Source: Acidimicrobiales bacterium
GTDB taxonomy: Bacteria > Actinomycetota > Acidimicrobiia > Acidimicrobiales > JAHEJN01
Direction of reading: 5' to 3'
Assembly: GCA_024638845.1 (NCBI GenBank)
Contig: JAHEJN010000005.1
Span: forward strand, 8,468 to 72,467
Length of the DNA stretch: 64,000 nt
Shown here one piece after another: positions 26,036-51,114 of the stretch (the stretch's first letter is position 1; each line of letters opens with the position of its first letter). The notes under the pieces are model-generated. The model was not told where the DNA came from. It made no database searches and saw only the letters and a program-made list of their open reading frames with translations. The position numbers and the translations under genes were made by a program.

Positions 26036-26344
26036 TCAGGCGGTGATGCTGTCGGCCTGGGCCGCGGCCGCCGCCGCCTGCCGGGCCAGGGCCCGCTGAC
26101 GACGGATGCGGCGGCGCTCGCGTTCGCTCATACCGCCCCAGATGCCGAATTTCTCGCCGTTGGCCAGGGCGTACTCGAGGCAGTCGCCGCGGACCACACA
26201 ACCGCGGCAGACGTCCTTGGCCTCGCGGGTCGATGCACCGCGTTCGGGGAAGAAGAGATCGGGATCGACACCGAGGCAGTTGGCCAGTTCCTGCCACGGG
26301 CGTTCTTCGGCCCCAGGTTCGACCTGGACCTCGAGTTCGCTCAT
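26036..26344 (-). CDS. whiB: WhiB (WhiB2/WhmD-like) transcription factor
   Basis: WQELANCLGVDPDLFFPERGASTREAKDVCRGC...CLEYAL...FGIWGGMSERERR. Confidence 0.93.
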   Translation of the reverse strand: MSELEVQVEPGAEERPWQELANCLGVDPDLFFPERGASTREAKDVCRGCVVRGDCLEYALANGEKFGIWGGMSERERRRIRRQRALARQAAAAAAQADSITA

Positions 26345-26499
26345 GTGTGCCTCCCTGCCCTGCCGGCCCGTGCCGGCCAGGACACCGCGATGCCCGCTGC
26401 CTGGACACGCGTGTAATTACGTCCATGTGATTCTGGACCCTGAGCAGGCAAATCGCAAGACCGAGTCCGATTTTTCTGGAATTTCGCCCGGCGGCTCGA

Positions 26500-28536
26500 T
26501 CAGGCGGTCCGACGACCCTGCACCATGGCCCGGCGGTGCTCGACGAAATCGACGAGCACGTAATCGCCCAGATTCTCGTTGGTCGTGAAGAACGCACGCC
26601 CACCGTTCATCTTGGTGATCTGCTCGATGAACCGGGTCAGATGGGGCGTGGCGTCGAGCATGAAGGTGTTGATGCGGATGCCCTCCCGGGTACAGGCCGC
26701 GACCTCCGACAACGTGCGATCGACCGTTTCCTGCGACGGCGGATAGCTGAAGAACGGTTTTCCGCTCGCGGTGATGTGGGCGGTGGGCTCACCGTCGGTG
26801 ATCATGATGATCTGCTTGGTACCGCTCTGGCGGGCCAACAGCTCGCGGGCCAACAGGAAGCCGTGTTGCATGTTGGTGCCGTACACGTAGTCCCAGGAGA
26901 CCTCGGGGAGCTGCTCGGGTCTGATCTTGCGGGCCACCTCACTGAAGGCCACCACCCCCAGGTAGTCCCGCGGGTACTGGCTGCTCATGAGGGCGTGCAG
27001 CGCCATGGCCACCTTCTTGGCCGGCAGGAAGTTGTCGCGCATCGGCATGCTCAACGACAGATCGAGCATGAGGACCGTGCTCACCTTCACCAGCGACTCC
27101 GTGCGCTCGACCTCGAAGTCATCGGGCGTGAGCGGAACCGGCGTGCCCCCACCGGTTCGACGGATGGCGTTGCGGATGGTGCGCTGGATGTCGAGGTTGA
27201 ACGGATCGCCGAACTCGTAGGGCTTGGTCGAATAGTCGCGCTCGTGGCCGACGCCGGTCTGGGCCAGCTCGTGGCCGCCGGGGCGGTCGTGGCGCAACTT
27301 GCGGAACAGATCGGCCAAGGCCTGCTGGCCGAGACGACGGATGGCTCGCGGGGTCATCTCGAGGCGGCCGTCCTTGTTCTCGATGAGGCCCGCGTCTTCG
27401 AGCAGCTTCGTCATCTCGGCCATCTGCTCGAGGCTGCGAGCGGCGTCGTCACCCATGAGCTCACGCGCCCGTTCGACGTCGACCTCGGCGAGAGCACCGG
27501 GGTTGGTGGCGCCCCGAAGGAGCTGTTCGAGCTGATCGATGTCGGCCAGCTCACCGAGGACCTGTTGACCGCTGCCCAGATCGAGGGGGTCGAGTCCCTG
27601 GAACTGCTGCTCGCTGTCCCAGCCGGCGTCGGGAAAGAGCTGCTGGAGGCTACGACCGAGCTGATCGGCCTGCCAGCGCAGGTCCATGTCCTCGAGCAGC
27701 TGATCGGACAGTGCCTCGAGCTGGGCCCGCTGTTCGGGCGTCATCGAGTTCAACATCGCCTGCATCGCGGCCATCCGGGCAGCCATGGCTTCGAGCAGCT
27801 CGTCGAGGGTCTCGGGGTTCTCGGGGAAGAAGTCGCCGAAACGGTTCATGAAGCCGCTGAAATCGGGCTCCTCGCCGTTGGCCCGCTGATCGAGCATGTG
27901 GTTCAGCTCGGCCATCATGTCCTTCGCCCGCTGGAGGTCCTCGGGCTGCATGCCGTCGACACCCTCGGTCATCTGGTCGACGAACTGCTGCATCAGCTGC
28001 TCACGGAGGCGCTCGAGCAGTTCGTCGAAGCGACGCTGCGCCTCGGCCGAGGTGAAGTCGTAGTCCTGGAGGCTCTTCGTCTGCCCCGCGAGATCGGGCG
28101 GCAACATGTCGAGGTGGAACTGTGCTTCCTCGGCGGCCCGCCTGGCGATCTCGTCGCGTCGAGCGTCGCCGGACTCAGTGCCGAGAACATCGTCGAGCGC
28201 CCGCTTCTCGGTCTCGATCACCTCGTTGAGATCGCGGGCGATCTCGTCGTACACGCCGCCCAGGTCGAACTGGTCGAGCCGATCCTGACGTTGCTGCCTG
28301 AGCTGCTCGAGCAGCTCGCGGATGCCCTGCATTCGCTCACCGTCGACATCGAACCCCTGCTGCATCAGACGCCGTAGCGCGGCGTTGAGATCGCCGTGGT
28401 ACACGAGGTCGTCGGCCATCTCGCTCATGAGATCGGCCGCCGACAGATCGAAACCGGTCTGGGTTCCGTCCCAGCGCGAGTACGACACGCGCCGGTCGGC
28501 GGAGCGGCGACGGGAGCGGCGACGAAACAGAGCCAT
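26500..28536 (-). CDS. VWA-domain protein (partner of the AAA+ ATPase)
   Basis: YSRWDGTQ N-terminus; MIDAS DLSLS, GTNMQHG, ITDGEP. Confidence 0.9.
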   Translation of the reverse strand: MALFRRRSRRRSADRRVSYSRWDGTQTGFDLSAADLMSEMADDLVYHGDLNAALRRLMQQGFDVDGERMQGIRELLEQLRQQRQDRLDQFDLGGVYDEIARDLNEVIETEKRALDDVLGTESGDARRDEIARRAAEEAQFHLDMLPPDLAGQTKSLQDYDFTSAEAQRRFDELLERLREQLMQQFVDQMTEGVDGMQPEDLQRAKDMMAELNHMLDQRANGEEPDFSGFMNRFGDFFPENPETLDELLEAMAARMAAMQAMLNSMTPEQRAQLEALSDQLLEDMDLRWQADQLGRSLQQLFPDAGWDSEQQFQGLDPLDLGSGQQVLGELADIDQLEQLLRGATNPGALAEVDVERARELMGDDAARSLEQMAEMTKLLEDAGLIENKDGRLEMTPRAIRRLGQQALADLFRKLRHDRPGGHELAQTGVGHERDYSTKPYEFGDPFNLDIQRTIRNAIRRTGGGTPVPLTPDDFEVERTESLVKVSTVLMLDLSLSMPMRDNFLPAKKVAMALHALMSSQYPRDYLGVVAFSEVARKIRPEQLPEVSWDYVYGTNMQHGFLLARELLARQSGTKQIIMITDGEPTAHITASGKPFFSYPPSQETVDRTLSEVAACTREGIRINTFMLDATPHLTRFIEQITKMNGGRAFFTTNENLGDYVLVDFVEHRRAMVQGRRTA

Positions 28537-28644
28537 ACCGGCAAGCTACCCCACCGGCACCCCTTCCCTTCCGGCGCGCGATCGATGGTGTCCAGCCACC
28601 GCCGCGCGAGCCGGAAGCCCGGGGGCAGCGCATACTCGTCTCGT

Positions 28645-29850
28645 ATGGATCGGAGCAGATGGATCGGGGTGACGCAGTCGTCGGTGCAGGCCGAGGGGGC
28701 CGGCGCCGCGTCCGACTGGTTCGCCTGGGAACGCGAGCGCGAGCTCGGTCCGTCGAGCGACGGGAACGGGTTCGGCACCGACTTCGCCGACGACTTCGCC
28801 CTGTTCGCCTCGCTCGGGCACACCCACGTGCGCCTCACGATCGAGTGGGCACGAATCGAGCCGGCCGGCGGCAAGCTCGACCGCGACGAGATCGACCGCT
28901 ACCACGACATGTTGACGGCGGCTCGCCACGCCGGGCTCGATCCCATCGTGACCCTCGTGTCGACGTCGTTGCCGGGCTGGTTCCACGACGACGAGGGCGG
29001 CTTCCTCGACGCCAAGAACCGGCGCACCCGCTGGGTGACCCACGTCGAGCGTTGCGCCGAGACCTTCGAAGGGTTGGCGGCGGCCTGGGTCGGCATCGAC
29101 GATCCCATCGGCTGGGCGGTCCGGGGCTACGGACTGGGCTCACGACCTCCCGGCAGGAACGACCCCGAGAAGGCCATCGATGCCGTGGTCGCCGCCCTCG
29201 ACGCCGACCGGCTCGCGGCGACGGTGCTGCGGGCCGGCACGGCACCGGTGATCTCGTCGTTCGGACTCCCGACCATCTTCCCCGTCGGGCCCGATGCCGG
29301 CGCGAGTGCCCGGTTCTGGGACGACCTCTTCTGGCAGAGCTGGATCGGAGCCGTCGGCGACGGCGAGGTCCTGGTGCCCCATCGTCGGCCGCGCAAGAAC
29401 CAGGATTACGTCGGCATGTACGACATCGTCGGCTTCATCCACATGCCGCCGCTCGGTGTCGACCGTGAGGGAACGTGCCGTCCCTACCCTGGCGGTGGCC
29501 AGCCCGACGCCACCGGCTTCGTCCCTACCCCGCCCGAGCTGGGCGAGACACTCCGACGCCTCGACGAGGAGCTCCCGAACCAACCACTGCTCGTCACCGG
29601 TCTCGGCGTCACGACCGACGACGACGACTTCCGCGACGCGATCCTCGACGACATGTCGCAGGAGATCGCCTCGGCCATCGGCGACGGAGTGGCCCTGAAG
29701 GGATGGCTCCACGACACCGGTGTCGACGGCTACGAGTGGGCCGGCGGGTTCACACGCCGGCGCGGCATCATCGATCGCGACCGCAACCCCAAACCGAGCG
29801 CCCGCCGGGTGGCCGCACCCGATCGACCCGATCAGGTGCGGGACTTGTAG
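28645..29850 (+). CDS. Glycoside hydrolase family 1-like protein with degenerate catalytic residues
   Basis: QSSVQAEG, RLTIEWARIEP, DGYEWAGG; DDP at the NEP position and TGLG at the TENG position. Confidence 0.85.
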   Translation: MDRSRWIGVTQSSVQAEGAGAASDWFAWERERELGPSSDGNGFGTDFADDFALFASLGHTHVRLTIEWARIEPAGGKLDRDEIDRYHDMLTAARHAGLDPIVTLVSTSLPGWFHDDEGGFLDAKNRRTRWVTHVERCAETFEGLAAAWVGIDDPIGWAVRGYGLGSRPPGRNDPEKAIDAVVAALDADRLAATVLRAGTAPVISSFGLPTIFPVGPDAGASARFWDDLFWQSWIGAVGDGEVLVPHRRPRKNQDYVGMYDIVGFIHMPPLGVDREGTCRPYPGGGQPDATGFVPTPPELGETLRRLDEELPNQPLLVTGLGVTTDDDDFRDAILDDMSQEIASAIGDGVALKGWLHDTGVDGYEWAGGFTRRRGIIDRDRNPKPSARRVAAPDRPDQVRDL

Positions 29851-31259
29851 ATGGCTCTCGATCCACCGGAACCCGAGGTCGCCGTCTTGTTGAGGCGCTT
29901 CGACAGGTGGAGGCCCTCGAGCACGAACTCGATGCCACTCGCCACCAGGGCGGCGTCGTCGAGGTCGTCGTGTTCGAAACCGAGAGCCGTGAGGCACGCG
30001 CCGAGAGCCGGGACACGGTCGAGGAGCTTCAGGTAGAGGTCGCCGGGCACGTCATCGCCGGCATCGACCACCAGTTGGTCGTCGTCGAAGGCCTCGACCA
30101 CCGCCTGGCCCTCGGCCGGATCGACGACGTCCCGGAACACGGTGAGCACCGCCGACTTGAGGAGCGTCTGCACGATCTCACCGTCGCGGCCGTCGTCGAG
30201 CGATTCGATCTCGACCTTGCCCATCGTCGAGGGAGCGAGGGCATCGAGGTCGCACACGCGCGGCACCGCCCGGGCCTCACCCGCCCGGAGCGACCGTCGT
30301 ATGGCGCTCGCCGCCAACGTCTCGTAGTTGGCCACCGAGAGTCGGACCGAGACCCCCGAGCGCTGGTTGATGTGGGGGCTGTCGCGGGCCAGATGACTGA
30401 GCGTGGCCACGATCTCACCCATGAACTCGGGCACCTCGACGCTGACACCGTCGGTCTCGGGCAGGCGTGCCTCCTGCTCGGCGATGTCGAGCTCGATGTC
30501 GACCTCGAGCGGATAGTGAGTGCGGATCTGGGCACCGAAGCGGTCCTTCAGCGGGGTGATGATGCGACCCCGATTCGTGTAGTCCTCGGGATTGGCCGAG
30601 GCGAACAGCAACACGTCGAGGGGCAGCCGCACCTTGAAGCCGCGGATCTGCACATCGCGCTCCTCGAGCACGTTCAGCAGACCGACCTGGATGCGTTCGG
30701 AGAGGTCGGGCAGCTCGTTGATGGCGAACAGCCCCCGGTTCGTACGCGGCACCAGCCCGTAGTGGATGGTGAGCTCGTCGGAGAGATACCGACCCTCGGC
30801 CACCTTGATCGGGTCGACTTCGCCGATGAGGTCGGCGATCGAGGTGTCGGGCGTGGCCAGCTTCTCGCCGTAGCGTTGGTCGCGGTGCACCCAGTCGAGC
30901 GGCGTGTCGTCCCCGTCGTGGGCGATCAGTTCACGGGCGTGGCGCGAGACCGGGTGGTACGGGTCGTCGTTGATCTCGCTCCCGGCGACGATCGGCATCC
31001 ACTCGTCGAGCAGGGCGGTGAGCCCGCGGATCATGCGGGTCTTGGCCTGCCCTCGCTCGCCGAGAAAGATCACGTCGTGTCCGGCGAGGAGCGCGTTCTC
31101 GAGCTGGGGGATCACCGTTTCCTCGTAACCGATGACGTTGGCCACCAACGATTCGCCGGCCGCGATGCGCTTCACCGCATTGGCGCGCACTTCGTCGCGC
31201 ACCGAGCGCGACTGCCAGCCGGCTGCCTTGAGTTCACCGAGGGTGGTGGGTCGGGTCAT
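29832..31259 (-). CDS. Mg-chelatase/MoxR-like AAA+ ATPase
   Basis: GERGQAKT Walker A, INELPDL, ANPEDYTNRGRIITPLKDRFG. Confidence 0.9.
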   Translation of the reverse strand: MTRPTTLGELKAAGWQSRSVRDEVRANAVKRIAAGESLVANVIGYEETVIPQLENALLAGHDVIFLGERGQAKTRMIRGLTALLDEWMPIVAGSEINDDPYHPVSRHARELIAHDGDDTPLDWVHRDQRYGEKLATPDTSIADLIGEVDPIKVAEGRYLSDELTIHYGLVPRTNRGLFAINELPDLSERIQVGLLNVLEERDVQIRGFKVRLPLDVLLFASANPEDYTNRGRIITPLKDRFGAQIRTHYPLEVDIELDIAEQEARLPETDGVSVEVPEFMGEIVATLSHLARDSPHINQRSGVSVRLSVANYETLAASAIRRSLRAGEARAVPRVCDLDALAPSTMGKVEIESLDDGRDGEIVQTLLKSAVLTVFRDVVDPAEGQAVVEAFDDDQLVVDAGDDVPGDLYLKLLDRVPALGACLTALGFEHDDLDDAALVASGIEFVLEGLHLSKRLNKTATSGSGGSRAIYKSRT

Positions 31260-31295
31260 TCCCGGAACCTACACAACCCGACCGTCGAACGACGG

Positions 31296-32531
31296 TCAGT
31301 CGCGGAGGAACTCGGTCTCGAGCTCGTCCCACGGCTGGGCTCGGCTGTACAGCCACCCCTGCCCGCGCCGACATCCGAGACGGAGCAGCTCGTCGACCTG
31401 GCGAGGATGCTCGATGCCCTCGGCCACCACGCCCAGACCGACGGCCCGGGCGAGCTCGACGATGGCGCGCGTGATCGCCGTGTCCTCCGACGACAGGCCG
31501 AGGCCCGCCACGAAGCTCCGGTCGATCTTCAACACGTCGACCGGCAGACGCTTGAGCTGACTGAGCGACGAGAAGCCGGTGCCGAAGTCGTCGACGGCCA
31601 CCTCGACACCCGTGCGGCGCAGCTCGTCGAGCACGTCGAGAGCCGACGGGTCGGACATGAGAGCGGTTTCGGTGACCTCGACGCACAGACCGGAGGAATC
31701 GAGATCGGCGTCGGCGAGCGCCTGCCCGACGACATCGACCAGCTCCTCGTCGCCGAGCTGTTCGGCCGACAGATTGACCCGCAGGGTGAGGACGGTTCCG
31801 CCGAAACGACGAGCCCAGTTGCCGAAGTCGGCGCAGGCCCGGCGCATCACCGATCGACCGATCTCCTGGATCAGCCCCGAGGCCTCGGCCAGCTCCACGA
31901 AGTCGCCGGCAACGACCACGCCACGATCGGGGTGGTCCCAGCGCACCAGGGCCTCGGCACCGAGGGCCAGACCACTCTCGAGATCGATCTCGGGTTGATA
32001 GTGAACCGTGAGCTCGTCGGCCTCGATCGCCTCGACGAGCCGGCTGACTTCGTCAGGGTCGAACGGCTGTAGGACGGGTACCGGATCGGACAACACCCCC
32101 GGCGTCGACTCGGCGTCGTCCTCGGAACGAGTGGGGCGGAAGGTGAGCAGACGCGTGCCGGGCGGGCCGAGCCGCCCGGGGCGGTCGACGAACAACATGA
32201 GCGGGCCCGAGGCACCGAGGAGCAGCGACCCCGAGCCCTTCGGCGCATCGGCGGGGCGGGTCAGCGCCCGTTCCACCGCACCGACGTCGGCTTCGGAGAC
32301 GAGATCGACCAGCGTCGAACCGACCCACTCCTCGGCCGGCCGGCCCAGGATCGAGCCACTGTTCGGGCTCGCGTAGCTGACCACGCCCTCGTGGTCGACG
32401 AGCATCACGGCATCACGGAGGTGGGCCAGGACCTGAGCGTGCACGGGCGCGCCGAGGGTCGACACCGCCGTATCGGTGATGTCGATGACGTCGTCGGTCG
32501 ATTCGAGTTGCTCGAAACCCTGCTCGCGCAC
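31296..32531 (-). CDS. PAS-EAL c-di-GMP phosphodiesterase
   Basis: PAS-like segment (DAVMLVD..G...Y.SP); YQP, EALVRW, VNLS, EVTE, DDFGTG, KIDRSF, AEGIE, QGW all present; no GGDEF. Confidence 0.9.
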   Translation of the reverse strand: MREQGFEQLESTDDVIDITDTAVSTLGAPVHAQVLAHLRDAVMLVDHEGVVSYASPNSGSILGRPAEEWVGSTLVDLVSEADVGAVERALTRPADAPKGSGSLLLGASGPLMLFVDRPGRLGPPGTRLLTFRPTRSEDDAESTPGVLSDPVPVLQPFDPDEVSRLVEAIEADELTVHYQPEIDLESGLALGAEALVRWDHPDRGVVVAGDFVELAEASGLIQEIGRSVMRRACADFGNWARRFGGTVLTLRVNLSAEQLGDEELVDVVGQALADADLDSSGLCVEVTETALMSDPSALDVLDELRRTGVEVAVDDFGTGFSSLSQLKRLPVDVLKIDRSFVAGLGLSSEDTAITRAIVELARAVGLGVVAEGIEHPRQVDELLRLGCRRGQGWLYSRAQPWDELETEFLRD

Positions 32532-34772: not shown

Positions 34773-34876
34773 ACCCTCACGGGTTTACCCATGATCGTGC
34801 CGACCCGGTAGCGTCGAAGCATCGCCTAACCGTCGTCGGGCTCGCCGTTCGGTGCGCCTCGGAAGGGATCTCCTCG

Positions 34877-35718
34877 ATGGCAACGACACTGTCTCGCACT
34901 CGCGGCGGGCCCACCCCCAGCACGACTGCCGAGCCGATTCGCTCCAAGCCACGTTCACTACCGTTCCCGCTCAGCCTGTACCAGACGGCGGTCGGCAAGA
35001 AGTGGGTCATGGCGCTCACCGGCATCGGACTGGTGGGGTTCGTCATCGCCCACATGATCGGCAACCTCCACATGTACGAGGGTCCCGTGCCGGTCGCCGA
35101 GTACGGAGAAACCCTCCGCGACATCGGCATCGACGTCATCCCCCGTACGTGGTTCCTGTGGGCCCTGCGCGGCGGACTCGTGGTCATGTTCGTCCTGCAC
35201 ATCCACTCGGCGGTCTCGCTGGCGAGGATGAACCACACCTCGAACGCGGGCTCGAAGCTCGACGGCAACAAGAGGTACACCGGCGGCCAGGACTACATCG
35301 CGGTCAACTTCGCCAGCCGCACGATGCGGTGGACGGGCCCGATCATCGCCCTGTACCTGCTGTATCACCTGGCCGACCTCACATGGGGCCTCCTGCCCTG
35401 GGTCGACTTCGAGCGGGGCGATCCCTACCACAACCTGGTCGGGAGCCTCGAGAACTGGCCGGTCGCCATCCTCTACATCGTCGCCAACGTGGCTCTCGCC
35501 GTGCACATCTTCCACGGCGTGTACAGCCTCTTCCAGAGCCTCGGTGTCAACAACCCCAAGATCAACAGCGTGCGGCGCCCCCTGGCCGGAGCGCTGGCGC
35601 TGATGATCCTCGTCGGGAACCTCAGCTTCCCGATCGCGGTGCAGGCCGGTCTGATCGACCAGGACAACTGCGAGGCACCGTGCGGAATCACCGGACTCGA
35701 AGCCGAGGAGGCTGCGGA

Positions 35719-35722
<4 letters not shown>
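34877..35722 (+). CDS. sdhC: Succinate dehydrogenase cytochrome b subunit
   Basis: [11 protein letters not shown]...[26 protein letters not shown] heme-ligand motifs. Confidence 0.93.
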
Positions 35723-37641
<1,919 letters not shown>

Positions 37642-38439: not shown

Positions 38440-41400
38440 TCACGAATCAGCGCGTTCGAGGCGTTGCAGCGCGTCGGTCACCGCACGAGCCGTGACCGCG
38501 ACCTTCGGTTCGACGAGGAGGCCGCCGTGGTCGCCCGGCAACTCGATCACCTCCACGTTCTCCCCCAGATGGTCGCTCCATCCGAGGTCGGACCGACCGG
38601 TGGCCCGCCGCCGCTCAGCGGTGGCGACGACCACGGCCGGAACACCGACGACGGTCCCCGACCGACGATGGGTGTCGAGCATGATTCGGGACGCCCGAGT
38701 GTTCCGGCGCCACCGGACCGCCGGATCGCGGACATCGCGGTCCCGATCGGTGACGACGCCACGGAGGTCCGCAAGAGATCGTCGGCCGGAGCTCGCGGCG
38801 CGTGCCCGCCGCCGTTGCTCGACGGGTGCGGCGTCGACGATCAACAGTCCCTCCACCCACCCCGGAAGTCGTCGATGGAGCCGTCGAACCACCTCGACGG
38901 CCACGACCCCTCCGAACGAGTTGCCCGCAATCACCGGCGGTGGCCCGTCGAGGCTCACGAGCGTCTCGACGATGCGAGCGACAAGACGCCGGAGAACCAG
39001 ATTCGGGCGTTCGCCGATCTCGGATCCGGGGTACGGATACACGAGAACCTCGGGCGGAGCGGCGAGGTGGTGAACGAGGCGTCGTACCTCGACATCGAGG
39101 CTACCGCCACCAGGAAACCAGATCACGCGTCGACCGTCATGACCGGTGCAGATCCGCCGAAGCCGGCCCGGCAGGGGTCCGCCGAGGGAGGCGACCCCGT
39201 CTGCGGCCAACTCGGCAAGGGGTCGATCTCCGACGAGCATGGCCATGTCGAGCCTGACCCCGCGGATGTCGAACAACTGCTCCTGGAGTGAAATGGCGGC
39301 GAAACTGTCGCCTCCGTTGGCCTGGAGGGAGCGAGTCGGGTCGATCGTGGTCGGCGACCGGCCCAGCACACTCGCCACCACGGCGCAGATGTCGGCCACA
39401 TCAGGTGAGAGCGACACGACTTCGGCCGTATCCTGGGATCGGGCGAGAAGCGTTCGGGCCGTCATGTGGTCGATCTTCCCGCTATCGAGCACCGGAATCG
39501 CCTCGACGACCTCGATCCGGTTCAGAACGGCGAACGACGGCAGGAGCTCGGCGACCGCCGAACGCATGTCGGCCGCCGACGGGTGTCCGATGGGAGTGAC
39601 CAGGGCCGCAAGACTGGCGCCGAGCGGCGCCTCCGGATCGATCATGACGAGAGCCGAGCGCACGAGACCGGTCGAGACGAGTGCATGCTCTATCTCGCCG
39701 GCATCGATGCGATTGCCGTTCACGGACAGGCGGGAGTCGCGTCGACCGACGAAATGCAGCCGACCCGCGCCGTCCCACCACCCGAGATCGCCGGACCGAT
39801 GACCCCGATCACCGGCCTCCGACGGCGTGACGAGCGGACCATGGATGACGATCTCGCCTCGCACTCCGGGGGGTACCGCACACCCGTTGGCGTCGATCAC
39901 CTCGAGTCCGACGTTGGCGAGCGGACGACCGATGTCGGGATCCCGAGTGCCCTGCGGCACGGGACCGAGCGTGCTTTCCGACGTGGCTTCCGTACAGCCG
40001 TACTGGTTCACGATCGTCGCATCGGGGAACGCCTCGGCGACGGCGTCGGCGGTGCCCCGGGTCAGCCGATCGGCGCCCGAAACGACCAGTCTCACCTGCC
40101 GGTTCGGGCCGACGTGGCCGAGCACCTGACCTGCCACGGCGTGGAGCATGGCCGGGGTTCCCCGGTACCAGGTCACGGCGAGCTCGTTCAACCGCAGTGC
40201 GATCCGGAATGGATCTCGAACGGTGACGCCATCGAGGAAGTAGAGGGCGCTCCCGCTCAGCAACGGAGCCAACCACTCCGACAGGAACCCGACCACCGAT
40301 GCAGGTTTGGAGACCGTGGCGACCCCGACGGCGTCGGGTGGGACGATCTGATGCCACGCGTGCACGAGGTGGACCAGATTCGACTGCGTTCCCATGCTCA
40401 GGCGCGGCTCTCCGGTCGAGCCGCTGGTGAGACATCCCCACGCCGGCGATTCGGGGTCGATCGAGTCCGGCAGTTGGCCGGGAGGCGAGGCGGTCAAGAG
40501 CTCATCGAAGGAGACCTCCTGGTGACCGGACGGCATGGGTGCTCCGCCGACGTCGGCGACGACGAGGCGCACCGAGGCCGCGGTCAGCTGCGTGGCCATT
40601 CGCCGCTCGGATCCGTCGCACCCAACGGCGACCACCGCGCGGCCGATACGCCAGGCCGCGAGCTGGAGGACGATCTGCTCGAGGCCACCCGGCAGGACCG
40701 AGCCGATCGTCTCACCCTCCGTGGTGCGCCCGGCCAGGGCGATCGCGACGCGCCCGACCAACGCGTCGAGGTCCACGAAAGTGAGGTCGTGATCGAAGGA
40801 GCGCACCGCCGTTCTCCTCGGCCACTTGGCCACACACGTGCGGAACCAGTCGTCGACGGTCGTGAAGCCGGGAACGCCCTGAGGGCCACGGCACCACTCG
40901 TCCACGAGGGCCAGGTCGATCGAGCTGACCCAGCCGATCTCTTCGAGGAGACAATCGGGTGCGTCGACCAACGACTCGACGATCGCGGCGAAGGACCTCG
41001 CGTACGAAGCGGCGACGCTGCGTTCGACGAGTCGCGGATCGAACACGATCTCGAGGGACGCTGAAGAGCCGCCGAGGTGGAGATCGAGACTCACCGGAGC
41101 TCGGGCGACCGGCGGGTCGAGGGAAAGCGACTCGACCGTGAGGCGGCCCAGCTCGAGACGGTCGGTGTCGGTGCGCACCTGAACCCGAGCGTGGAGAATG
41201 GGTTCGCCGTACCGACGGCCTGCCGCATGCCGGATCTCGTCGAGACCCGAATCGGACCGCTCGTAGACGTCCAGGCACTCCTGACGCACGGATGCGAGCA
41301 AGTCCGCCGTCGACCGTGAAGCGGCCAGATCGACGACCACCGGGACGGAGTCCATCGTCACACCTACGGACCCGTCGCAGCTCGACGATCGATGATCGAC

Positions 41401-43965
41401 GGCGAGACCGACGGCGACCTTGTTGTCCCCGGTCAGGCGCTGCAAGCCGAGCGCGCTGGCCGCAACCTGAACCATCGTTGGCGTCACGTGGTGAGCAGCA
41501 CACACCTGACGGAGACGCTCGACCGTCGACTCGCCGAGCTCGATTCGTTCCACCGCCGGCCGAGCGCCAGCCAACCCCGCCGTGGCGGGCACTCGTGTCG
41601 GCCAGTCGAGCTCGACGGGAACATCACGAAAACGATCGGCCCACCACGCGCGGTCGGTCTCGCTCATCGGACGGTGGCGCGAACGAACCCGTGGAGCCGG
41701 GACCTGCCACGACTCGCCGGCGAAGGCCCGGGCCAGGTCATCGAGCACGACTCGGCGGCTGCGCCCATCGAGAACGGCGTGATGGTAGGCGAATCCGAGG
41801 AACCAGCGATCGGTCGACCCGAGGGGCCACAACGCGAAGCGGATCAGCGGGCCTTCGACGAGATCGTAGGACCGAGCAGCGGCGGCCTCGAACTCCGTCC
41901 GTGCCTGGTCGACGTCGAGAACCGCATCATCGTCGATCCACTCGTAGGCCTCGTCGACGTTGAGCGGCACGTAGTCGAGGGTCGGCGCGAAGACGAACGA
42001 CGCGCGCAGGGCTGGGTGGTGCTCGATCACGGTCTCGACCGCACGGCGCAGTCGACCGGCGTCGATCTCGCCTCGGATCGACCAGGCGAAGGCCATGTGG
42101 GAAGCCGCCGGATCGATGCCGAGTCGATCGGCGGCGAGCATCCGTCGCTGGGCCGCCGCAGGTGCCGTCACGCTCTGCATTCGATCGCGTCGACGCCGGG
42201 GCGGCCCGACGCGCAGTGACGCCATTCCCGAGAGCGACGTGTCGCGCAACAGGTCGACCAGTCGCACCTCGAATCCCCAGCGCTGTCCGAGATCGAACGC
42301 AACCGCCATGGCGGCCAACGAGTCGCCTCCGAGAGCGATGAAGTCGTCACTCCTGGCCATGGGCGCGAGCCCCACGGAACGCCACGCATCGGCAACCTCG
42401 GACTCGACCGAATCGAATGGAACGCGTGAACGCGCCGGCGCGCTGCTGCCGAACGACTCCGCCAGCCGATTCCGTTGCACCTTGCCGGTGGGTCCGACGG
42501 GTATCGCCTCGACCAGATGGACGACACGCGGCACCTCTGCGTCCCCCCGCCGAAGCGCAACCTCCTGCTGGAGACGAACGACGGGGATCGATGCGTTCTC
42601 GGTCACCACCGCCGCCGCCACCTGTTCGCCGAGGGTCGGATGCGGCGCAGCGAAGACGACGGCATCGTCGACCCCATCGAGGGAACGCAACACCTCTTCG
42701 ATCGGTCCGGGTGCGATCGTCTCGCCGCCGCGGTTGATCATCTCCCTGGTTCGGCCGACCAGGACCAGATGCCCGTCGGGATCGATTCGACCCAGATCAC
42801 CGGTGCGGAACCAACCGTCGACGAACGCGGCGTCGTTCACCACCGCATCGGCGATGTAGCCTCCCATCACGTTCCGACCTCGGATGACGACATCACCGAC
42901 ACCGCCGGGCTCGAGCGTCCGACCCTCGTCGTCGATCACCCGGATCCGGGCACCGTCGGCGCGTCCGACCGTGCCTCGGCGCAGATCATCGACGGTGTTG
43001 GACGTGATCTGATGGGCCGCCTCGGTCATGCCGTACGCCTCGAGCACCGGCACGCCGAATCGGCGTTCGAGCGACTCGGCCACCGATGCGGGCAGGGCCG
43101 ACGACGACGACCGAACCAGACGAAGACGCTCGGTCCAGGCCGAGTTGTCGCGCGGCGACGCCGTCAGGGCCCGGTGGATCGTGGGGACCGCGGTCACGAA
43201 AGTCGCGCCGAACGACGCGGCCGTGTCGGGGAGCGTGGCAGGATCGAATCGACCGCCGAGGAACACGGCCCCGCCGGCAGCGAGCGGGGCGAGGAGCCCC
43301 GCGACCATGCCATGGATGTGGGTGAGCGGCATGACCGTCAGCGACCGGTCGTCGGCTGCGAGCCCGAGCGATCCGACGATTCGTTCGATCGACGAGACCA
43401 GATTCCCGTGACGGAGGGGTACGACCTTGGGCTCGCCGGTGGTGCCTGACGTGGTCAGCACCAACGCGAGATCGGCGATGTCGTCCTGGGGACCGTGGGC
43501 GGATGGGCGATCGGGCCGACGAAGGCGGAAGCCGTCGTCACGGTGCGGGCTGACCACGGTGAGTCCGAGGTCGTTGGCCACCATTGCGGCCGGCGAGTCG
43601 ACCGTCGCCACCACTGCGGCCACCCGAGTCCGCGTGAAGTGCGCGGCGATCGCGTCGGGCGGGAGATCGGCGCGAACCGGCGCCGCCCCTCCCGCACCCA
43701 TCGCCGCCAGCACGGCCATCGCCAGGTCGGCGCCCTCGGGGAGGCACACACCGATCAGCGCCGAACCGAGCTCGTCTGCCAGCACCGCCGCACCGGCCTC
43801 GACCCGGTCGAGGAGCTCACGACGCGACCAGCCTCCACCCGGCGTGACGACGGCGAGAGCGAGGTCGGAGCCGGGCGCGGTGTGCAGCCGGGCGAGGACC
43901 GTAGGACCGTGCCGATTCACGGCACCCGCAGGTCCGACGTGGACCGATGGTTGCGCCCGCTGCAT
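38440..43965 (-). CDS. Stand-alone NRPS, A-T-C-A-T-TE (1841 aa)
   Basis: A1 TSGTTGEPK/YGMTE/FRTGD; T1 LGGDSL; C HHAVLDG; A2 TSGSTGEPR/NQYGCTE/RSGD/SGKID; T2 GGDSF; TE GNSFGG...GDH. Confidence 0.9.
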   Translation of the reverse strand: MQRAQPSVHVGPAGAVNRHGPTVLARLHTAPGSDLALAVVTPGGGWSRRELLDRVEAGAAVLADELGSALIGVCLPEGADLAMAVLAAMGAGGAAPVRADLPPDAIAAHFTRTRVAAVVATVDSPAAMVANDLGLTVVSPHRDDGFRLRRPDRPSAHGPQDDIADLALVLTTSGTTGEPKVVPLRHGNLVSSIERIVGSLGLAADDRSLTVMPLTHIHGMVAGLLAPLAAGGAVFLGGRFDPATLPDTAASFGATFVTAVPTIHRALTASPRDNSAWTERLRLVRSSSSALPASVAESLERRFGVPVLEAYGMTEAAHQITSNTVDDLRRGTVGRADGARIRVIDDEGRTLEPGGVGDVVIRGRNVMGGYIADAVVNDAAFVDGWFRTGDLGRIDPDGHLVLVGRTREMINRGGETIAPGPIEEVLRSLDGVDDAVVFAAPHPTLGEQVAAAVVTENASIPVVRLQQEVALRRGDAEVPRVVHLVEAIPVGPTGKVQRNRLAESFGSSAPARSRVPFDSVESEVADAWRSVGLAPMARSDDFIALGGDSLAAMAVAFDLGQRWGFEVRLVDLLRDTSLSGMASLRVGPPRRRRDRMQSVTAPAAAQRRMLAADRLGIDPAASHMAFAWSIRGEIDAGRLRRAVETVIEHHPALRASFVFAPTLDYVPLNVDEAYEWIDDDAVLDVDQARTEFEAAAARSYDLVEGPLIRFALWPLGSTDRWFLGFAYHHAVLDGRSRRVVLDDLARAFAGESWQVPAPRVRSRHRPMSETDRAWWADRFRDVPVELDWPTRVPATAGLAGARPAVERIELGESTVERLRQVCAAHHVTPTMVQVAASALGLQRLTGDNKVAVGLAVDHRSSSCDGSVGVTMDSVPVVVDLAASRSTADLLASVRQECLDVYERSDSGLDEIRHAAGRRYGEPILHARVQVRTDTDRLELGRLTVESLSLDPPVARAPVSLDLHLGGSSASLEIVFDPRLVERSVAASYARSFAAIVESLVDAPDCLLEEIGWVSSIDLALVDEWCRGPQGVPGFTTVDDWFRTCVAKWPRRTAVRSFDHDLTFVDLDALVGRVAIALAGRTTEGETIGSVLPGGLEQIVLQLAAWRIGRAVVAVGCDGSERRMATQLTAASVRLVVADVGGAPMPSGHQEVSFDELLTASPPGQLPDSIDPESPAWGCLTSGSTGEPRLSMGTQSNLVHLVHAWHQIVPPDAVGVATVSKPASVVGFLSEWLAPLLSGSALYFLDGVTVRDPFRIALRLNELAVTWYRGTPAMLHAVAGQVLGHVGPNRQVRLVVSGADRLTRGTADAVAEAFPDATIVNQYGCTEATSESTLGPVPQGTRDPDIGRPLANVGLEVIDANGCAVPPGVRGEIVIHGPLVTPSEAGDRGHRSGDLGWWDGAGRLHFVGRRDSRLSVNGNRIDAGEIEHALVSTGLVRSALVMIDPEAPLGASLAALVTPIGHPSAADMRSAVAELLPSFAVLNRIEVVEAIPVLDSGKIDHMTARTLLARSQDTAEVVSLSPDVADICAVVASVLGRSPTTIDPTRSLQANGGDSFAAISLQEQLFDIRGVRLDMAMLVGDRPLAELAADGVASLGGPLPGRLRRICTGHDGRRVIWFPGGGSLDVEVRRLVHHLAAPPEVLVYPYPGSEIGERPNLVLRRLVARIVETLVSLDGPPPVIAGNSFGGVVAVEVVRRLHRRLPGWVEGLLIVDAAPVEQRRRARAASSGRRSLADLRGVVTDRDRDVRDPAVRWRRNTRASRIMLDTHRRSGTVVGVPAVVVATAERRRATGRSDLGWSDHLGENVEVIELPGDHGGLLVEPKVAVTARAVTDALQRLERADS

Positions 43966-44017
43966 CCGCGAGAGTATGGCAGTGAGACGTCACACATGTC
44001 GGGTGGCACGAGCGAAT

Positions 44018-45472
44018 TCAGGTGATCGCCCGCCACGCCTCGGCCAGGCGCTCAGCGGCGTGGTCGAGGTGGTCGGGGGGCTGCACGAACGACATGCGCA
44101 CATGGTTGCGAGCGGAGTCGTCGGGTGACAGCAGGCGCCCGGGCACCACCGCCACACCTCGCTCGAGCGCCTCGGAAGCGAACACCTCGGCGTCGACGCC
44201 CGGCAGCCTCACCCAGAGACTGAGTCCACCGTTGACATCGGCGATCTGCCAGTCGGGCACCCGACTGCGCAGCCCGCCGACGAGCGCGGCCGCCTGGGAG
44301 CTGAGCTGTCGATTGCGCCAGCGGCGTACCTCGTCGTAGTGCTCGGCCAACAGCACCTGGCCGAGCGCTTGGGTCGGCATTGGGCTGCCGAGGTCGCTGA
44401 TGGTCCGAGCCGTGGTGAAGCGGGAGATGACCGACCGGCCGGCCCGGATCCAGGCGAGGCGCAGGCCGCCCCAGAACAGCTTCGACATCGACGCGAGATG
44501 CACCACGTTGGGTGCGGCGGCGAGCGGATGACGGTGCGGATCGGGAAACGGGCGACCGAGATCGAGATCGGCCAGCACCATGTCGTCGACGAACACGACG
44601 TCGGGGAACTGCTCGGTGAGCTCGAGCAGACGGGCGCGTGCCCGGTCGCCGAACCGGAGTCCGGTTGGGTTGTGCACGGTCGTCGCGAGGTAGACCAGCG
44701 ACGGATTGTGGGTGTCGAGAACATCGGCCAGCCGATCGAGATCGGTGCCTCCGGGCGGGATCGTCACCGGTCGCAGGCCGTGACGATGAACCAGGTCGAT
44801 CGCCCCGGCGAAGGTGGTGTCCTCGATCACGACTGCACCGCCGGGCCGCCCGGCCGTCTCGAAGACCACGTCGATGGCCTGCTGGGCACCCGTGGTCACG
44901 AGTATCTGGTCGGGATCGGTGGCCAACCCGAGCCGCTCGGTGTAGTGCTGGGCGATGGTGGTGCGAAAGCTGGGCAGACCGGCCGGGTGATAGCCGTGCG
45001 AGTCCTGCCAACCCGGTGCAACCGAGTCGAGGAGGTGGCCGTGATCGCGTAGGAGGTCGACCACGGGCGGCGCGCAGTCGGGCGCGGCGAGTGTGAGATC
45101 GAACTCCGGTGGCTTGTCGGTGAGCGAGCCGGCGAAGAGCCCATCGATCTTGTGGGGAGCCCCGGGTCGTGATCGGCGAGGCGCCACGGCGGTCCCTGAT
45201 CCCCGTCGGGAGCGAGCCAACCCCAGCTCACCCAGGCGGTGATAGGCCGCGGCCACCGTGTTCCGGCTCACCGCGATCGACGAGGCGAGCTCGCGCTCGG
45301 CCGGCAGCACCGCACCGGCGGGGAGCCGTTCGGTCTCGATGAGGATCTCGAGCTTCTCGGCCAGTGAGCGAAAGAGTGGCCCTTCCCCGGCCCAGTCGCC
45401 GAGCAGGTCGGTGACCTGTCGGGTGGTGACGCGATGGGAGGCCAACTGCTGGCCAATTGGCACTGTGCCCAT
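44018..45472 (-). CDS. MocR/GabR-family GntR regulator with PLP aminotransferase domain
   Basis: LPAERELA..VSRNTV HTH; TTGAQQA, HNPTG, SMSKLFWGGLR. Confidence 0.92.
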   Translation of the reverse strand: MGTVPIGQQLASHRVTTRQVTDLLGDWAGEGPLFRSLAEKLEILIETERLPAGAVLPAERELASSIAVSRNTVAAAYHRLGELGLARSRRGSGTAVAPRRSRPGAPHKIDGLFAGSLTDKPPEFDLTLAAPDCAPPVVDLLRDHGHLLDSVAPGWQDSHGYHPAGLPSFRTTIAQHYTERLGLATDPDQILVTTGAQQAIDVVFETAGRPGGAVVIEDTTFAGAIDLVHRHGLRPVTIPPGGTDLDRLADVLDTHNPSLVYLATTVHNPTGLRFGDRARARLLELTEQFPDVVFVDDMVLADLDLGRPFPDPHRHPLAAAPNVVHLASMSKLFWGGLRLAWIRAGRSVISRFTTARTISDLGSPMPTQALGQVLLAEHYDEVRRWRNRQLSSQAAALVGGLRSRVPDWQIADVNGGLSLWVRLPGVDAEVFASEALERGVAVVPGRLLSPDDSARNHVRMSFVQPPDHLDHAAERLAEAWRAIT

Positions 45473-48790: not shown

Positions 48791-49594
48791 TCAACCGTCG
48801 CCGAAGGCCGCGTCGCGATCGGACCGAGAGAGCAGTTCCGGCCAGTAGGTCACCTCGCCGTCGAGGAGCGCCCGAGCCACTCGGGTCAAGGTCCCGTAGG
48901 CGGCGCCGGCGAGGGCGCCGCCGGTGGATGCACGCCGCACCCCAGCGTCGCCCAGCTCCGCCGGTGTCGGACCGCCGGGGAACAACAGTACGTTCACCGG
49001 AAGGCCGACCTCGCCGACGACCCGACGGATCTCACCCAGATCGGTCAGTCCGGGCGCGTAGACGGCGTCGGCGCCGGCGTCACGGAAGGCACACAGACGT
49101 TCGATCGTGTCGTCGAGATCACCGCCGCCGTAGAGCTTGTTCTCGGCGCGAGCCGTGAGCAGCATCGGATGCTCGACGCGATGTGCGGCCTCGGCCGCCG
49201 CCGCGCAGCGCTCGACGGCCTTTCCGAGCGGGTCGATCGTGTTCGTCTCGGGATCGAAGTCCTCGATCGAGAGCCCGGCTGCGCCGGTCTGCGCAATGAG
49301 CGACACGGTCTCGGCGACCGCCTCGGCGGTGGCTGCGAAGCAACGCTCGGCGTCGACGTTCACCGGGATGTCGATGGCAGAAACGATCGCCGCGACATGA
49401 TCCAGGAGTTCCGAGCGGGTCACCTGTTGGTCGAGCCTGCCCAGCGCCGCCGCGTGACCCGAGCTCGTGGTGGCGACAGCAGCGAACCCGAGGAACTCGA
49501 GCAATCTGGCCGAACCCACATCCCACGGATTCGGGAGCAGGAACAGGTCGTTGGCCGCATGCAGGGCGGCGAATCGTTCATAGGCCGTGGTCAT
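48791..49594 (-). CDS. Isocitrate lyase/PEP mutase superfamily protein
   Basis: LPNPWDVGSAR, ATTSSG, PVNVDAE, SIED, TARAE, AGADAVYAPG. Confidence 0.9.
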   Translation of the reverse strand: MTTAYERFAALHAANDLFLLPNPWDVGSARLLEFLGFAAVATTSSGHAAALGRLDQQVTRSELLDHVAAIVSAIDIPVNVDAERCFAATAEAVAETVSLIAQTGAAGLSIEDFDPETNTIDPLGKAVERCAAAAEAAHRVEHPMLLTARAENKLYGGGDLDDTIERLCAFRDAGADAVYAPGLTDLGEIRRVVGEVGLPVNVLLFPGGPTPAELGDAGVRRASTGGALAGAAYGTLTRVARALLDGEVTYWPELLSRSDRDAAFGDG

Positions 49595-49695
49595 GACCGC
49601 GATGGTCGCACCCCGGGGCGCGGGCGTCGACAAGAGGGGAACCCTCCGCTGGTGTCCGTCGCACGGCCTGGCGTCGTCGTGGGACACTGCGGGCG

Positions 49696-51114
49696 ATGGA
49701 TCTGCTGTTCCACATACTCGATCAGTCGCAATGGGACCAGGCCCGAGCGGCCGGAGTGTACGAGCCCGAGTCGCTGACGGCCGAGGGCTTCATTCATCTC
49801 TCGACCGCCGACCAGGTGCCCGGAACGGCCAACCGCCGCTATGCCGGGGGGACCGATCTGGTCGTGCTCGCCATCGACGCCGACGCCGTGACCCCCGAGA
49901 TCCGGTTCGAGGACCTCTACGATCACGGTGCCGAGTTCCCCCACCTGTACGGCCCGCTCGCCACCTCCGCCGTCCACCACGTGGTGCCGCTCGAAGCCGG
50001 CGAGGAGGCCACGTTCACGTTCTCGTTCCCTCACGAGGGGGGCGACGTCGAGGCCCTGGCGACGGACTATCCGTCAGCCCGGAGCAGCTTCCTCGATGCA
50101 GCCGTCGGCGCCGGCGCAACCGTCGAGTCATTCGGTCACCCGCGCCGCGGCCTGAACGACGAGGAGCTCTTCGTCGACGTGGCCCGCCTGGGACCCGACG
50201 AGGCCGACGTCTGCGTGCTGGTGGTGGCGGCCACCCATGGGGTCGAGGGCTACGCCGGGTCCGCCCTCCAGACCCATTGGCTCACCGAGCACGCACAACA
50301 GCGGCCCGACAACGCGGCAGTGTTCCTCGTGCACGCCTTCAATCCCTTCGGCTTCTCCTGGGTACGACGGGTGAACGAGGACAACGTCGACCTCAACCGC
50401 AACTTCATCGACTGGGACGAACCCCTTCCGACCAATGCCGCGTACATGCAGATCGCATCCGCCCTCGTTCCCGCCGACTGGTCGACCGAGAGCCAGCAAC
50501 GCTCGCTGGCCGATCTGCTCACCGTCGCCGGCGACTGGGGGCTCGAGCGCATGCAAACCGCCGTGAGCTCGGGCCAGTACGCCCATCCCACCGGCGTGTT
50601 CTACGGAGGCGACGGTCCCGTGTGGTCGCACCGATGGCTGCGGTCATGGGCGAGCGACCATCTGTCCGGAGCCCGTGACCTCGCCGTCCTCGATCTCCAC
50701 ACCGGCCTAGGGGCCTGGGGGGCTTGCCAGCTCATCGGCCACGACCGGGTGGGGACCGCCGGTCATGCCCGCGCCGGCGACTGGTGGGGTCCGGTCGTCG
50801 CCATGGGCGGCGAGAACAGCGTCTCCGCCTCGCTCACCGGCGACTGGCTCGGTGTCGTCCAGGAGCTGGCGGCGAGCGCCCGGACCACGCGTGTGGCGCT
50901 CGAGTTCGGCACCGTCGATGCCGTCACCGTGCTGCAGGCGCTGCGCGCCGACGCATGGCTGCACGCCCACGGCGACCCCCTCGGCGACGACGCGGCCGCG
51001 ATCCGCGCCCAGGTTCGGGCGGCGTTCGCCGACGACGACCCCCGATGGATTCGCTCGTGTTGGCCGCATTTCGCACGGGCCATGACGGCCACGTTCGCCA
51101 AGATCGGCCGCTGA
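49696..51114 (+). CDS. DUF952 fused to DUF2817/M14-like metallopeptidase
   Basis: N-terminal EGFIHLST...FPHLYGPL (DUF952), then Y..AR..FL, THGVEG, NEDNVDLNRNF, DLHTG, LEFGT (M14-like). Confidence 0.82.
   Translation: MDLLFHILDQSQWDQARAAGVYEPESLTAEGFIHLSTADQVPGTANRRYAGGTDLVVLAIDADAVTPEIRFEDLYDHGAEFPHLYGPLATSAVHHVVPLEAGEEATFTFSFPHEGGDVEALATDYPSARSSFLDAAVGAGATVESFGHPRRGLNDEELFVDVARLGPDEADVCVLVVAATHGVEGYAGSALQTHWLTEHAQQRPDNAAVFLVHAFNPFGFSWVRRVNEDNVDLNRNFIDWDEPLPTNAAYMQIASALVPADWSTESQQRSLADLLTVAGDWGLERMQTAVSSGQYAHPTGVFYGGDGPVWSHRWLRSWASDHLSGARDLAVLDLHTGLGAWGACQLIGHDRVGTAGHARAGDWWGPVVAMGGENSVSASLTGDWLGVVQELAASARTTRVALEFGTVDAVTVLQALRADAWLHAHGDPLGDDAAAIRAQVRAAFADDDPRWIRSCWPHFARAMTATFAKIGR

Follow-up and report, generated by a model that had tools for sequence, protein, structure and literature searches.

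A two-module nonribosomal peptide synthetase from an Acidimicrobiales genome with an oxalyl-CoA-synthetase-like first adenylation domain: a candidate oxalyl-starter assembly line

The synthetase gene and its domains

The synthetase considered here is encoded on the minus strand of a 64,000 nucleotide stretch of DNA, referred to below as the window (contig JAHEJN010000005.1 of assembly GCA_024638845.1), from an Acidimicrobiales bacterium whose genome (G000) comprises 3.70 Mb in 220 contigs and is 96.9% complete. A single open reading frame (ORF) encodes a nonribosomal peptide synthetase (NRPS) of 1841 aa (P0001), in which two adenylation domains (A1 and A2), two carrier domains (T1 and T2), a condensation domain (C) and a thioesterase domain (TE) are arranged in the order A1-T1-C-A2-T2-TE. 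A1 resembles the oxalyl-CoA synthetases (OCS), and the protein is a candidate for an assembly line that starts from oxalate. The ORF and its parts are located as follows.

38440..43965, minus strand: whole NRPS ORF, A1-T1-C-A2-T2-TE, 1841 aa (1826 aa from the alternative GTG start at 43920)
42436..43965, minus strand: A1, OCS-like adenylation domain, aa 1-510
43426-43452, minus strand: P-loop of A1, TSGTTGEPK
43309-43323, minus strand: gate and pocket motif of A1, THIHG
43093-43116, minus strand: VRSSSSAL of A1, with S288
42997-43035, minus strand: YGMTEAAHQITSN of A1, with H318
42472-42492, minus strand: PTGKVQR of A1, with the catalytic K495
42190..42414, minus strand: T1 carrier domain, approximately aa 518-592, with the phosphopantetheine-site motif LGGDSL at 42316-42333
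40924..42159, minus strand: condensation domain, aa 603-1014, with an intact HHAVLDG at 41764-41784
39430..40878, minus strand: A2, orphan adenylation domain, approximately aa 1030-1512
39202..39393, minus strand: T2 carrier domain, aa 1525-1588, with NGGDSF at 39301-39318
38443..39129, minus strand: thioesterase domain, aa 1613-1841, with GNSFGG at 38908-38925 and GDHGG at 38521-38535

Comparison with Pfam recovers AMP-binding in A1 (aa 38-370 and a second stretch, E 1e-109) followed by AMP-binding_C (aa 422-495), two PP-binding domains, Condensation (aa 603-1014, E 1e-37), a second AMP-binding and AMP-binding_C pair and Thioesterase (aa 1613-1738), which establishes the A-T-C-A-T-TE order that had been put forward in an earlier, sequence-only reading of this DNA. 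That reading placed a loading module at 42200-43965, a span that corresponds to aa 1-588 and comprises A1 and T1, and all five motifs that it quoted are found there: MPLTHIHGM (aa 212-220), LRLVRSSSSAL (approximately aa 281-291), PVLEAYGMTEAAHQITSN (approximately aa 306-323), EMINRGGE (aa 408-415) and LGGDSL (aa 545-550). The A, T (serine in GGDSL or GGDSF), C (HHxxxDG) and TE (GxSxG and His) domains are collinear in one protein, as in modular (type I) NRPSs. The catalytic motifs that were checked are all intact, namely the P-loops, FRTGDLG of A1 and SGDLG of A2, the A10 lysines, GGDSL and GGDSF, HHAVLDG, GNSFGG and GDHGG. The GC content of the ORF at the three codon positions (GC1/2/3 = 0.75/0.52/0.80) follows the pattern of a real gene, in a genome and window of about 68% GC.

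With the C-A2 part of the protein as the query, 10 of 41 related genomes give a match at E ≤ 1e-20, and orthologues are confined to two of the 41, the genome itself and the same-genus genome G002 (52% identity, E 8e-289), the remaining matches being at most 34% identical. No match to C-A2 was obtained in G001, the other same-genus genome searched, which is only 58% complete. The closest locus, L001, comes from an uncultured Acidimicrobiales metagenome-assembled genome (MAG) and corresponds to G002. The NRPS is 60% identical to its counterpart in L001 (1019/1707), and the flanking genes are 86-97% identical. Nei-Gojobori estimates against this orthologue give a synonymous divergence (dS) of 0.16-0.55 for the flanks, 0.57 for A1 and 0.82-1.31 for T1, C, A2, T2 and TE; the corresponding ratio of nonsynonymous to synonymous divergence (dN/dS) is 0.20 in A1 and lies between 0.23 and 0.40 in the domains that follow it. 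A mis-registered GH2-like row is left out of these estimates. As the ratios fall between 0.20 and 0.40, the gene is constrained by purifying selection, with A1 as its most constrained part. Judged from its sequence, the gene is best explained as a functional, genus-restricted, two-module NRPS.

Relatives and predicted pocket of the first adenylation domain

When aa 1-588 are compared with all PDB sequences, the highest score is that of LsOCS from grass pea (6qjz, 261.4 bits, E 1.8e-76), followed by yeast Pcs60 (8aff, 247.4 bits, E 3e-72) and Arabidopsis AtAAE3 (5ie0, 240.9 bits, E 3e-70), so that the resemblance of A1 to the oxalyl-CoA synthetases is beyond chance by far. Further down the ranking are LgrA, which reaches 187.7 bits over two stretches because the 588 aa query includes T1, MatB (162.2 bits), FadD5 (122.1), FadD13 (121), DhbE (116.6) and EntE (109-111.6). 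The fold of aa 1-510 was modelled with AlphaFold2 from a 61-sequence alignment, with a mean predicted local distance difference test score (pLDDT) of 83.4, and the model was compared with the PDB by Foldseek; ranks 1-6 are occupied by 5ie2, 5ie3, 5ie0, 6qjz and two chains of 8aff (E 8e-47 to 2e-43), and ranks 7-11 by MatB. The bit scores and the predicted-fold search both place A1 closest to LsOCS, Pcs60 and AtAAE3, as the sequence-only reading had proposed, and they establish, at the level of sequence and fold comparison, that A1 descends from the OCS (AAE3/Pcs60/'FadD7-like') branch of the ANL superfamily and has become fused to a carrier domain.

The same comparisons bear on the alternative that A1 is a starter ligase for a fatty acyl or aryl acid, as in the synthetases of lipopeptides or aryl-capped siderophores. 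Acyl-ligase starters that load fatty acids do exist, PvdL being one example, and the best NCBIfam model for A1 bears a fatty acid-CoA ligase name, that of the FadD7 family (NF004511, an equivalog model; 344.8 bits, under its cut-off of 650). The name is however generic, and the titles and abstract openings of 12 of the 20 papers mentioning FadD7 or Rv0119 describe no substrate assay; the fadD7 gene of M. tuberculosis presumably adjoins oxcA. Grouping with fatty-acyl or aryl ligases, the outcome that had been named as refuting an oxalate loader, is not observed for A1, since FadD13 scores 121 bits and DhbE and EntE approximately 110-117 bits against the 241-261 bits of the OCS enzymes. Furthermore, aa 333-434 align with LsOCS without gaps through the hinge GRTREMINRGGE, with no insertion of the type found in fatty acyl-AMP ligases (FAAL) and their starter domains, and I217, H218, M313 and H318 close off the pocket in the way seen in OCS. 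A fatty-acyl or aryl starter is thus extremely unlikely.

The oxalate pocket of AtAAE3 is formed by V215-H216, C288-S289, A313-M314, H319 and K500, of which S289, H319 and K500 contact oxalate directly, and S289 and H319 are conserved among OCS enzymes only, according to the available text of PMC8905533, which cites the AtAAE3-oxalate structure. The A1 equivalents in an ungapped HMMER alignment are I217-H218, S287-S288, G312-M313, H318 and K495. All three direct contacts (S288, H318 and K495) are therefore kept, and they are identical in the sole orthologue, P0003, which also retains a 14-site signature of A1. At the other pocket sites the His and the Met are identical, and the three replacements, of Val by Ile, Cys by Ser and Ala by Gly, are conservative and represent the majority state among bacterial relatives. 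The combination of RSxS and H318 occurs in none of the 14 other ANL paralogues of the same genome, the best of which is 41% identical to A1. The sequence-only reading had attributed the oxalate contacts to the Arg of the RS.S motif and the His of the TEA.H motif. The motifs are right and so is the His, whereas the contact in RS.S is its last Ser and not the Arg, as stated in the same portion of PMC8905533; 'Arg' appears nowhere in the available text of the Pcs60 preprint (bioRxiv 10.1101/2022.08.30.505785).

The domain type of A1 is not unique to this gene. Carrier-fused relatives are frequent in MAGs, and word-index searches return many relatives at 40-47% identity, which occur as free-standing proteins of about 500 aa, A-T proteins of about 600 aa, A-T-TE proteins of about 860-900 aa, A-T-LbH proteins and NRPSs with such a first domain. 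Some of the free-standing relatives of about 500 aa have been named 'oxalate---CoA ligase' by JGI, and one free-standing bacterial relative that is 43% identical to A1 (P0131) scores 467.6 bits against AtAAE3. S288 and H318 are found together in 82/82 short, 38/38 mid-length and 81/121 NRPS-length proteins among 241 relatives, frequencies that for H318 are biased upward by the way in which homologues were selected, the sets having been picked via shared 5-residue words and the 80 genomic loci partly via the pattern MTEAAHQI. The 241 proteins were classed by length alone; a PP-binding domain is present in four of those counted as 'short', and the mid-length ones are all carrier-fused by Pfam.

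The NRPS-length subgroups that deviate from this signature are altered at the pocket sites themselves, which read HAH/AS/S in Bradyrhizobium and HGH/AS/T in Variovorax. This is the pattern that would be expected if those sites set specificity, and it suggests that the loaders of these two genera are tuned to other small acids. Both are cultured genera, and their proteins measure approximately 2150 aa in Bradyrhizobium (P0032, P0041, P0043, P0053 and others) and approximately 2750 aa in Variovorax (P0015, P0017 and P0018).

The second module and the proposed biosynthetic route

A2 retains the adenylation core motifs TSGSTGEP, NQYGCTE, SGDLG, GRRDSRLSVNGNRIDAGEIE and SGKIDH. Its specificity code was read from alignments with LgrA, in what we take to be the GrsA numbering convention. 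The sequence FDGSALD of LgrA aligns with VVGFLSE of A2, so that position 235 is a Val in place of the Asp of amino-acid-activating domains, and there is no Asp anywhere in KPASVVGFLSEW (40273-40308) of A2 or in the same stretch of the orthologue. The predicted 10-residue code is V235 G236 S239 R278 V299 G301 Q322 S330 E331 K517, which the orthologue shares except for S330A. Val-Gly at positions 235 and 236 occurs in the α-keto-acid-activating domains of the cereulide and valinomycin synthetases, which carry an inserted ketoreductase (KR); A2 differs from these in having no inserted KR, with only about 70 aa between A8 and A10. Since A2 lacks the amine anchor Asp235 and has a polar pocket with Arg and Glu, the second acid is probably not a standard α-amino acid. 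The assignment of a named substrate to A2 was considered and rejected, as none is indicated by its best PDB match, which totals only 161 bits, by a region-restricted homologue search, in which nothing exceeds 32% identity apart from the orthologue (56%), or by the protein atlas, which returns generic 'adenylation domain' clusters only. The remainder of the protein is equally isolated. The C domain is at most 27% identical to others, the TE is likewise lineage-specific, and the C-A2-T-TE part has no relative above 32% identity, the orthologue being set aside in each case.

In the proposed route, A1 would adenylate oxalate, or a tiny polar acid that closely resembles it, and form an oxalyl thioester on the phosphopantetheine arm of T1, which is the expected acceptor in place of CoA because A1 is fused to a PP-binding and a C domain. 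A2 would activate an acid other than a standard α-amino acid and load it onto T2. The C domain, with its intact HHxxxDG motif, could then join the oxalyl group to a nucleophile, either an amine or a hydroxyl, of the T2-bound unit, and the TE, in which GxSxG and the His are present, would release a small oxalyl amide or ester. The sequence-only reading had oxalate, or a similar small diacid, condensed onto a second unit and released as an oxalyl amide or ester. The architecture agrees with this, but, with an orphan A2 that lacks Asp235, an oxalyl amide formed on an ordinary amino acid is not what would be expected by default. The putative product may perhaps act as a 2-oxoglutarate mimic or metal chelator, much like N-oxalylglycine.

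Several observations weigh against oxalate as the substrate, in addition to the FadD7-family score under its cut-off and the upward bias in the H318 counts described above. A1 shares no more than 30-32% of its residues with the characterised OCS enzymes when compared along its full length. In a FastTree phylogeny of 240 family sequences, rooted with the 14 ANL paralogues of the genome as the outgroup, A1 and its orthologue form a basal branch of 0.93 substitutions per site, with a support of 0.757 for the remaining 237 sequences as a clade. Of the 119 positions with a conservation of 90% or more across these 237 relatives, 97 are retained in A1, compared with a family median of 116, a 5th percentile of 108 and a minimum of 86, and with 64-87 in the outgroup paralogues. 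Among the positions lost are F215T, adjacent to the gate His, W256F/Y257V, K416T, E421P, H429L and K477E, and the LsOCS equivalent of the K416T site, Lys427, is an AMP contact in the available text of PMC8905533. No oxalate-forming, oxalate-transport or oxalyl-CoA decarboxylase gene is recognised near the NRPS, and oxc is nowhere above its cut-off in the genome. Queries with E. coli Oxc, Frc and YfdE return distant CoA-transferase and thiamine diphosphate (ThDP) enzyme paralogues only, elsewhere in the genome, and neither these queries nor the oxc search and the matches of the neighbouring genes connect the locus with a nearby source or sink for oxalate. The literature yielded no enzyme assay for this protein, for its carrier-fused relatives or for bacterial members of the family. 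Finally, if the acid activated by A2 carries no nucleophile, the proposed condensation could not occur as drawn.

By these measures A1 is OCS-derived but an atypical, divergent member of its family. In view of the low identity, the long branch and the loss of 22 of the 119 conserved positions, the retention of oxalate specificity is therefore something that we infer, and the divergence of A1 is the main reason why confidence in oxalate is set no higher than about one half. The unassigned second substrate weakens the proposal further. An oxalyl-starter assembly line remains plausible on this footing, with the case for oxalate standing in an even balance.

The divergence could also reflect an A1 that derives from OCS but has drifted to another tiny acid, with glyoxylate, glycolate, formate, acetate, malonate and oxamate as candidates, in which case the product would start with that acyl group. 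The long basal branch and the lost positions would fit such a history, several of the latter (F215T, W256F/Y257V and K416T) being near the active site, as would the V to I, C to S and A to G changes by which the A1 pocket departs from the plant enzymes; moreover, other NRPS-fused subgroups are clearly re-tuned at the pocket, so that a change of specificity is common in the family. The three direct contacts and the 14-site signature nevertheless constitute the commonest signature of the free-standing bacterial relatives and are conserved in the orthologue under a dN/dS of 0.20, and the I/S/G variants are not peculiar to A1 but the majority state in bacteria. Drift to another small acid is possible, albeit doubtful.

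Some relatives of A1 point to a further fate of a carrier-bound oxalyl group. In tblastn with E. coli Oxc, a ThDP gene lies immediately downstream of an OCS-like A(-T) gene in 5 of the 80 related loci (L039, L051, L053, L064 and L077), which are labelled Rhodobacteraceae, Chloroflexota, Acidobacteriota, Binatia and betaproteobacterium. Four of the five paired ThDP proteins match best to the NCBIfam models PRK05858, oxalyl-CoA decarboxylase and 2-hydroxyacyl-CoA lyase (HACL), in every case under the cut-off. The gene order is A-T, ThDP and C-A-T-C-A-T-TE in L053 (9215-20735), and DctM transporter, A-T, ThDP and NRPS fragments in L077 (8179-21100). Enzymes of the Oxc/HACL subfamily act on oxalyl-CoA or 2-hydroxyacyl-CoA thioesters, and the pairing of A(-T) and ThDP genes therefore fits carrier-bound oxalyl groups. 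It also points tentatively to starters of the formyl or 2-hydroxyacyl type in these sister loci, and the arrangement may represent a conserved operon that processes a carrier-bound oxalyl group.

Applied to the synthetase of the window, the pairing would suggest that oxalate is a masked one-carbon unit, with a ThDP enzyme acting in trans to decarboxylate oxalyl-S-T1 to formyl-S-T1 and an N- or O-formylated product as the result. Formyl-carrier-protein starters are known from lactacystin, as described in the available text of PMC11730586. Against this, tblastn with E. coli Oxc found no Oxc-like ThDP gene on the 85-kb contig of the window, the ThDP enzymes of the genome are just 21-28% identical to E. 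coli Oxc with none above the oxc cut-off, and T1 is fused straight to C in this protein, where a docking partner is not evident. A formyl starter is hence unlikely here, and direct transfer of the oxalyl group is the preferred route for this protein. Taken across the family, it is tentatively proposed that carrier-protein-coupled activation of oxalate might be a widespread and undescribed way to start an NRPS, leading by direct transfer to a small N- or O-oxalyl product in the present case and to a formyl or 2-hydroxyacyl starter in the sister systems with a ThDP enzyme.

The sequence-only reading knew of no characterised NRPS with an oxalate starter, and none is described in the open-access literature, a scope that leaves subscription journals and supplements outside. 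No paper within it links oxalate activation to an NRPS or a carrier protein, the matches being concerned with plant or yeast OCS or irrelevant. If A1 does load oxalate, it would be, to our knowledge and in this literature, the first oxalate-derived NRPS starter, and a C2 dicarboxylate would join the building-block repertoire. It would also provide a function for a large, unannotated carrier-fused family in many phyla of uncultured bacteria, whose members are now labelled merely 'AMP-binding' or 'acyl-CoA synthetase', and would link oxalate metabolism to secondary metabolism, with the ThDP pairing in related loci suggesting further carrier-bound oxalyl chemistry. If it does not, the gene would be a divergent small NRPS of unknown product.

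Upstream region, neighbouring genes and known systems

Two features lie directly upstream of the synthetase gene.

43966..44017, minus strand: spacer of 52 bp between the MocR-like regulator gene and the NRPS, holding the CACTGCCATACTC box
44018..45472, minus strand: MocR/GntR-type regulator gene, YczR-like at 398 bits (under the 487.4 cut-off) and 95.5% identical in L001

The ORF starts with ATG at 43965, and the database protein P0002 (1826 aa) begins at GTG 43920. The NRPS probably starts natively at the latter codon, and the 15 codons ahead of it, including the ATG, appear to be left over from another gene. In L001 the region that corresponds to 43920-44017 of the window extends over 6909-10037 and holds two additional genes between the MocR-like regulator and the NRPS. 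One is a GT4/GT1-like glycosyltransferase (GT) ORF at approximately 7901-8989, and the other is a 324-aa ORF at 9063-10037 without a Pfam or PDB match, whose atlas neighbours are 'Rv3785_N' hypothetical proteins and whose TGA stop codon overlaps the GTG start of the NRPS. The window ORF shares its first 12 or so codons (MQRAQPSVH...) and an upstream CACTGC(A/C)ATACT box with the 324-aa gene of L001, and the lineage of the window therefore seems to have deleted about 3 kb, leaving a remnant fused in frame to the NRPS. Neither the GT-like nor the 324-aa gene was found elsewhere in the genome by tblastn. The CACTGCCATACTC box of the spacer recurs ahead of two genes in L001. A scan with the sigma-70 consensus found no promoter, and the single terminator-like site is not above shuffled expectation. 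The orthologous NRPS in L001 shifts frame once, at approximately 10290-10300 and near codon 88 past the GTG, which represents either a real frameshift or an assembly error.

The upstream loss could be taken to mean that the gene is a decaying remnant without a product, which has been deprived of its upstream partners and diverges much faster than its neighbours. The lower identity to L001 (60% for the NRPS, with 48% for the C domain and 56% for A2, compared with 86-97% for the neighbours), the missing 3 kb with the GT-like and 324-aa genes, the frameshift in the L001 copy and a search of the genome that found no MbtH gene would all be in line with decay. The frame is however open over 5.5 kb, the checked catalytic motifs are intact, dN/dS is 0.20-0.40 across all six domains, and the frameshift may be an assembly error of the MAG, which together render a remnant very improbable.

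The neighbours of the NRPS comprise SdhA and SdhB, the MocR-like regulator, a group-II pyridoxal phosphate (PLP) decarboxylase, an IlvE-type branched-chain aminotransferase (BCAT), an EamA transporter/exporter, a phosphoenolpyruvate (PEP)-mutase-family protein and a DUF952-DUF2817 protein. Nothing in the analysis ties any of these neighbours to the pathway. SdhA/B, the regulator, the PLP decarboxylase, the BCAT and EamA were considered as cluster members and rejected. They are 86-97% identical in the sister genome, where the NRPS is 60% identical, and the genes on the MocR side are split from the NRPS in L001 by the inserted genes, so that they are treated as core neighbours and not as a cluster. 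The PEP-mutase/isocitrate-lyase-family neighbour (48791-49687) was likewise rejected as a source or sink of oxalate; it matches structural-genomics 'lyase/mutase' entries, and its match to the PA4872 oxaloacetate decarboxylase is weak (36 bits).

The SdhA/FrdA flavoprotein ORF (34852-37641, plus strand, 929 aa) matches its family only over aa 293-929, and its approximately 290 upstream codons are poorly conserved in L001, where they match other frames. Its real start is probably further downstream, or there is an overlapping gene for a small membrane subunit. The DUF952-DUF2817 fusion, of which the latter part is succinylglutamate desuccinylase/aspartoacylase-like, is encoded at 49696-51114 on the plus strand and is 82% conserved in L001. 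Another contig of the genome (C78, approximately 19592-31848) carries an additional NRPS cluster that is larger and contains several C domains, and the Sfp-type phosphopantetheinyl transferase adjacent to it is the only obvious candidate for an activator of the NRPS of the window.

Among known systems, A1 is most similar to the OCS enzymes AtAAE3 (5IE0/2/3), LsOCS (6QJZ) and Pcs60 (8AFF), all EC 6.2.1.8, with which it shares the ANL fold, the contact Ser, His and Lys and intact adenylation motifs. These enzymes are free-standing and supply oxalyl-CoA to catabolism or, in grass pea, to the synthesis of β-N-oxalyl-L-α,β-diaminopropionic acid (β-ODAP), whereas A1 is carrier-fused within an NRPS. 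MatB (4FUQ, 3NYQ) is the next-best solved class of ANL enzymes for small dicarboxylates, but at 149-162 bits it scores approximately 80-100 bits under the OCS enzymes and lies outside the Ser/His pair that is restricted to OCS in the available text of PMC8905533. The uncharacterised bacterial OCS-like proteins mostly carry the same HIH/RSSS/GMT/H/K signature as A1 and, in NRPSs, the same N-terminal position ahead of T and C, although none is more than 50% identical to A1 except for the single orthologue, and some, unlike the locus described here, have an Oxc/HACL-like ThDP enzyme next to them. The first module of PvdL and the acyl ligase (AL) and FAAL loaders of lipopeptide synthetases are ligase-type starter domains that load fatty or aryl acids. 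They share with A1 the logic by which an ANL ligase-like domain places a non-amino acid on a carrier and a downstream C domain condenses it; unlike these starters, A1 has no FAAL insertion, and its relatives and predicted pocket point to a C2 dicarboxylate.

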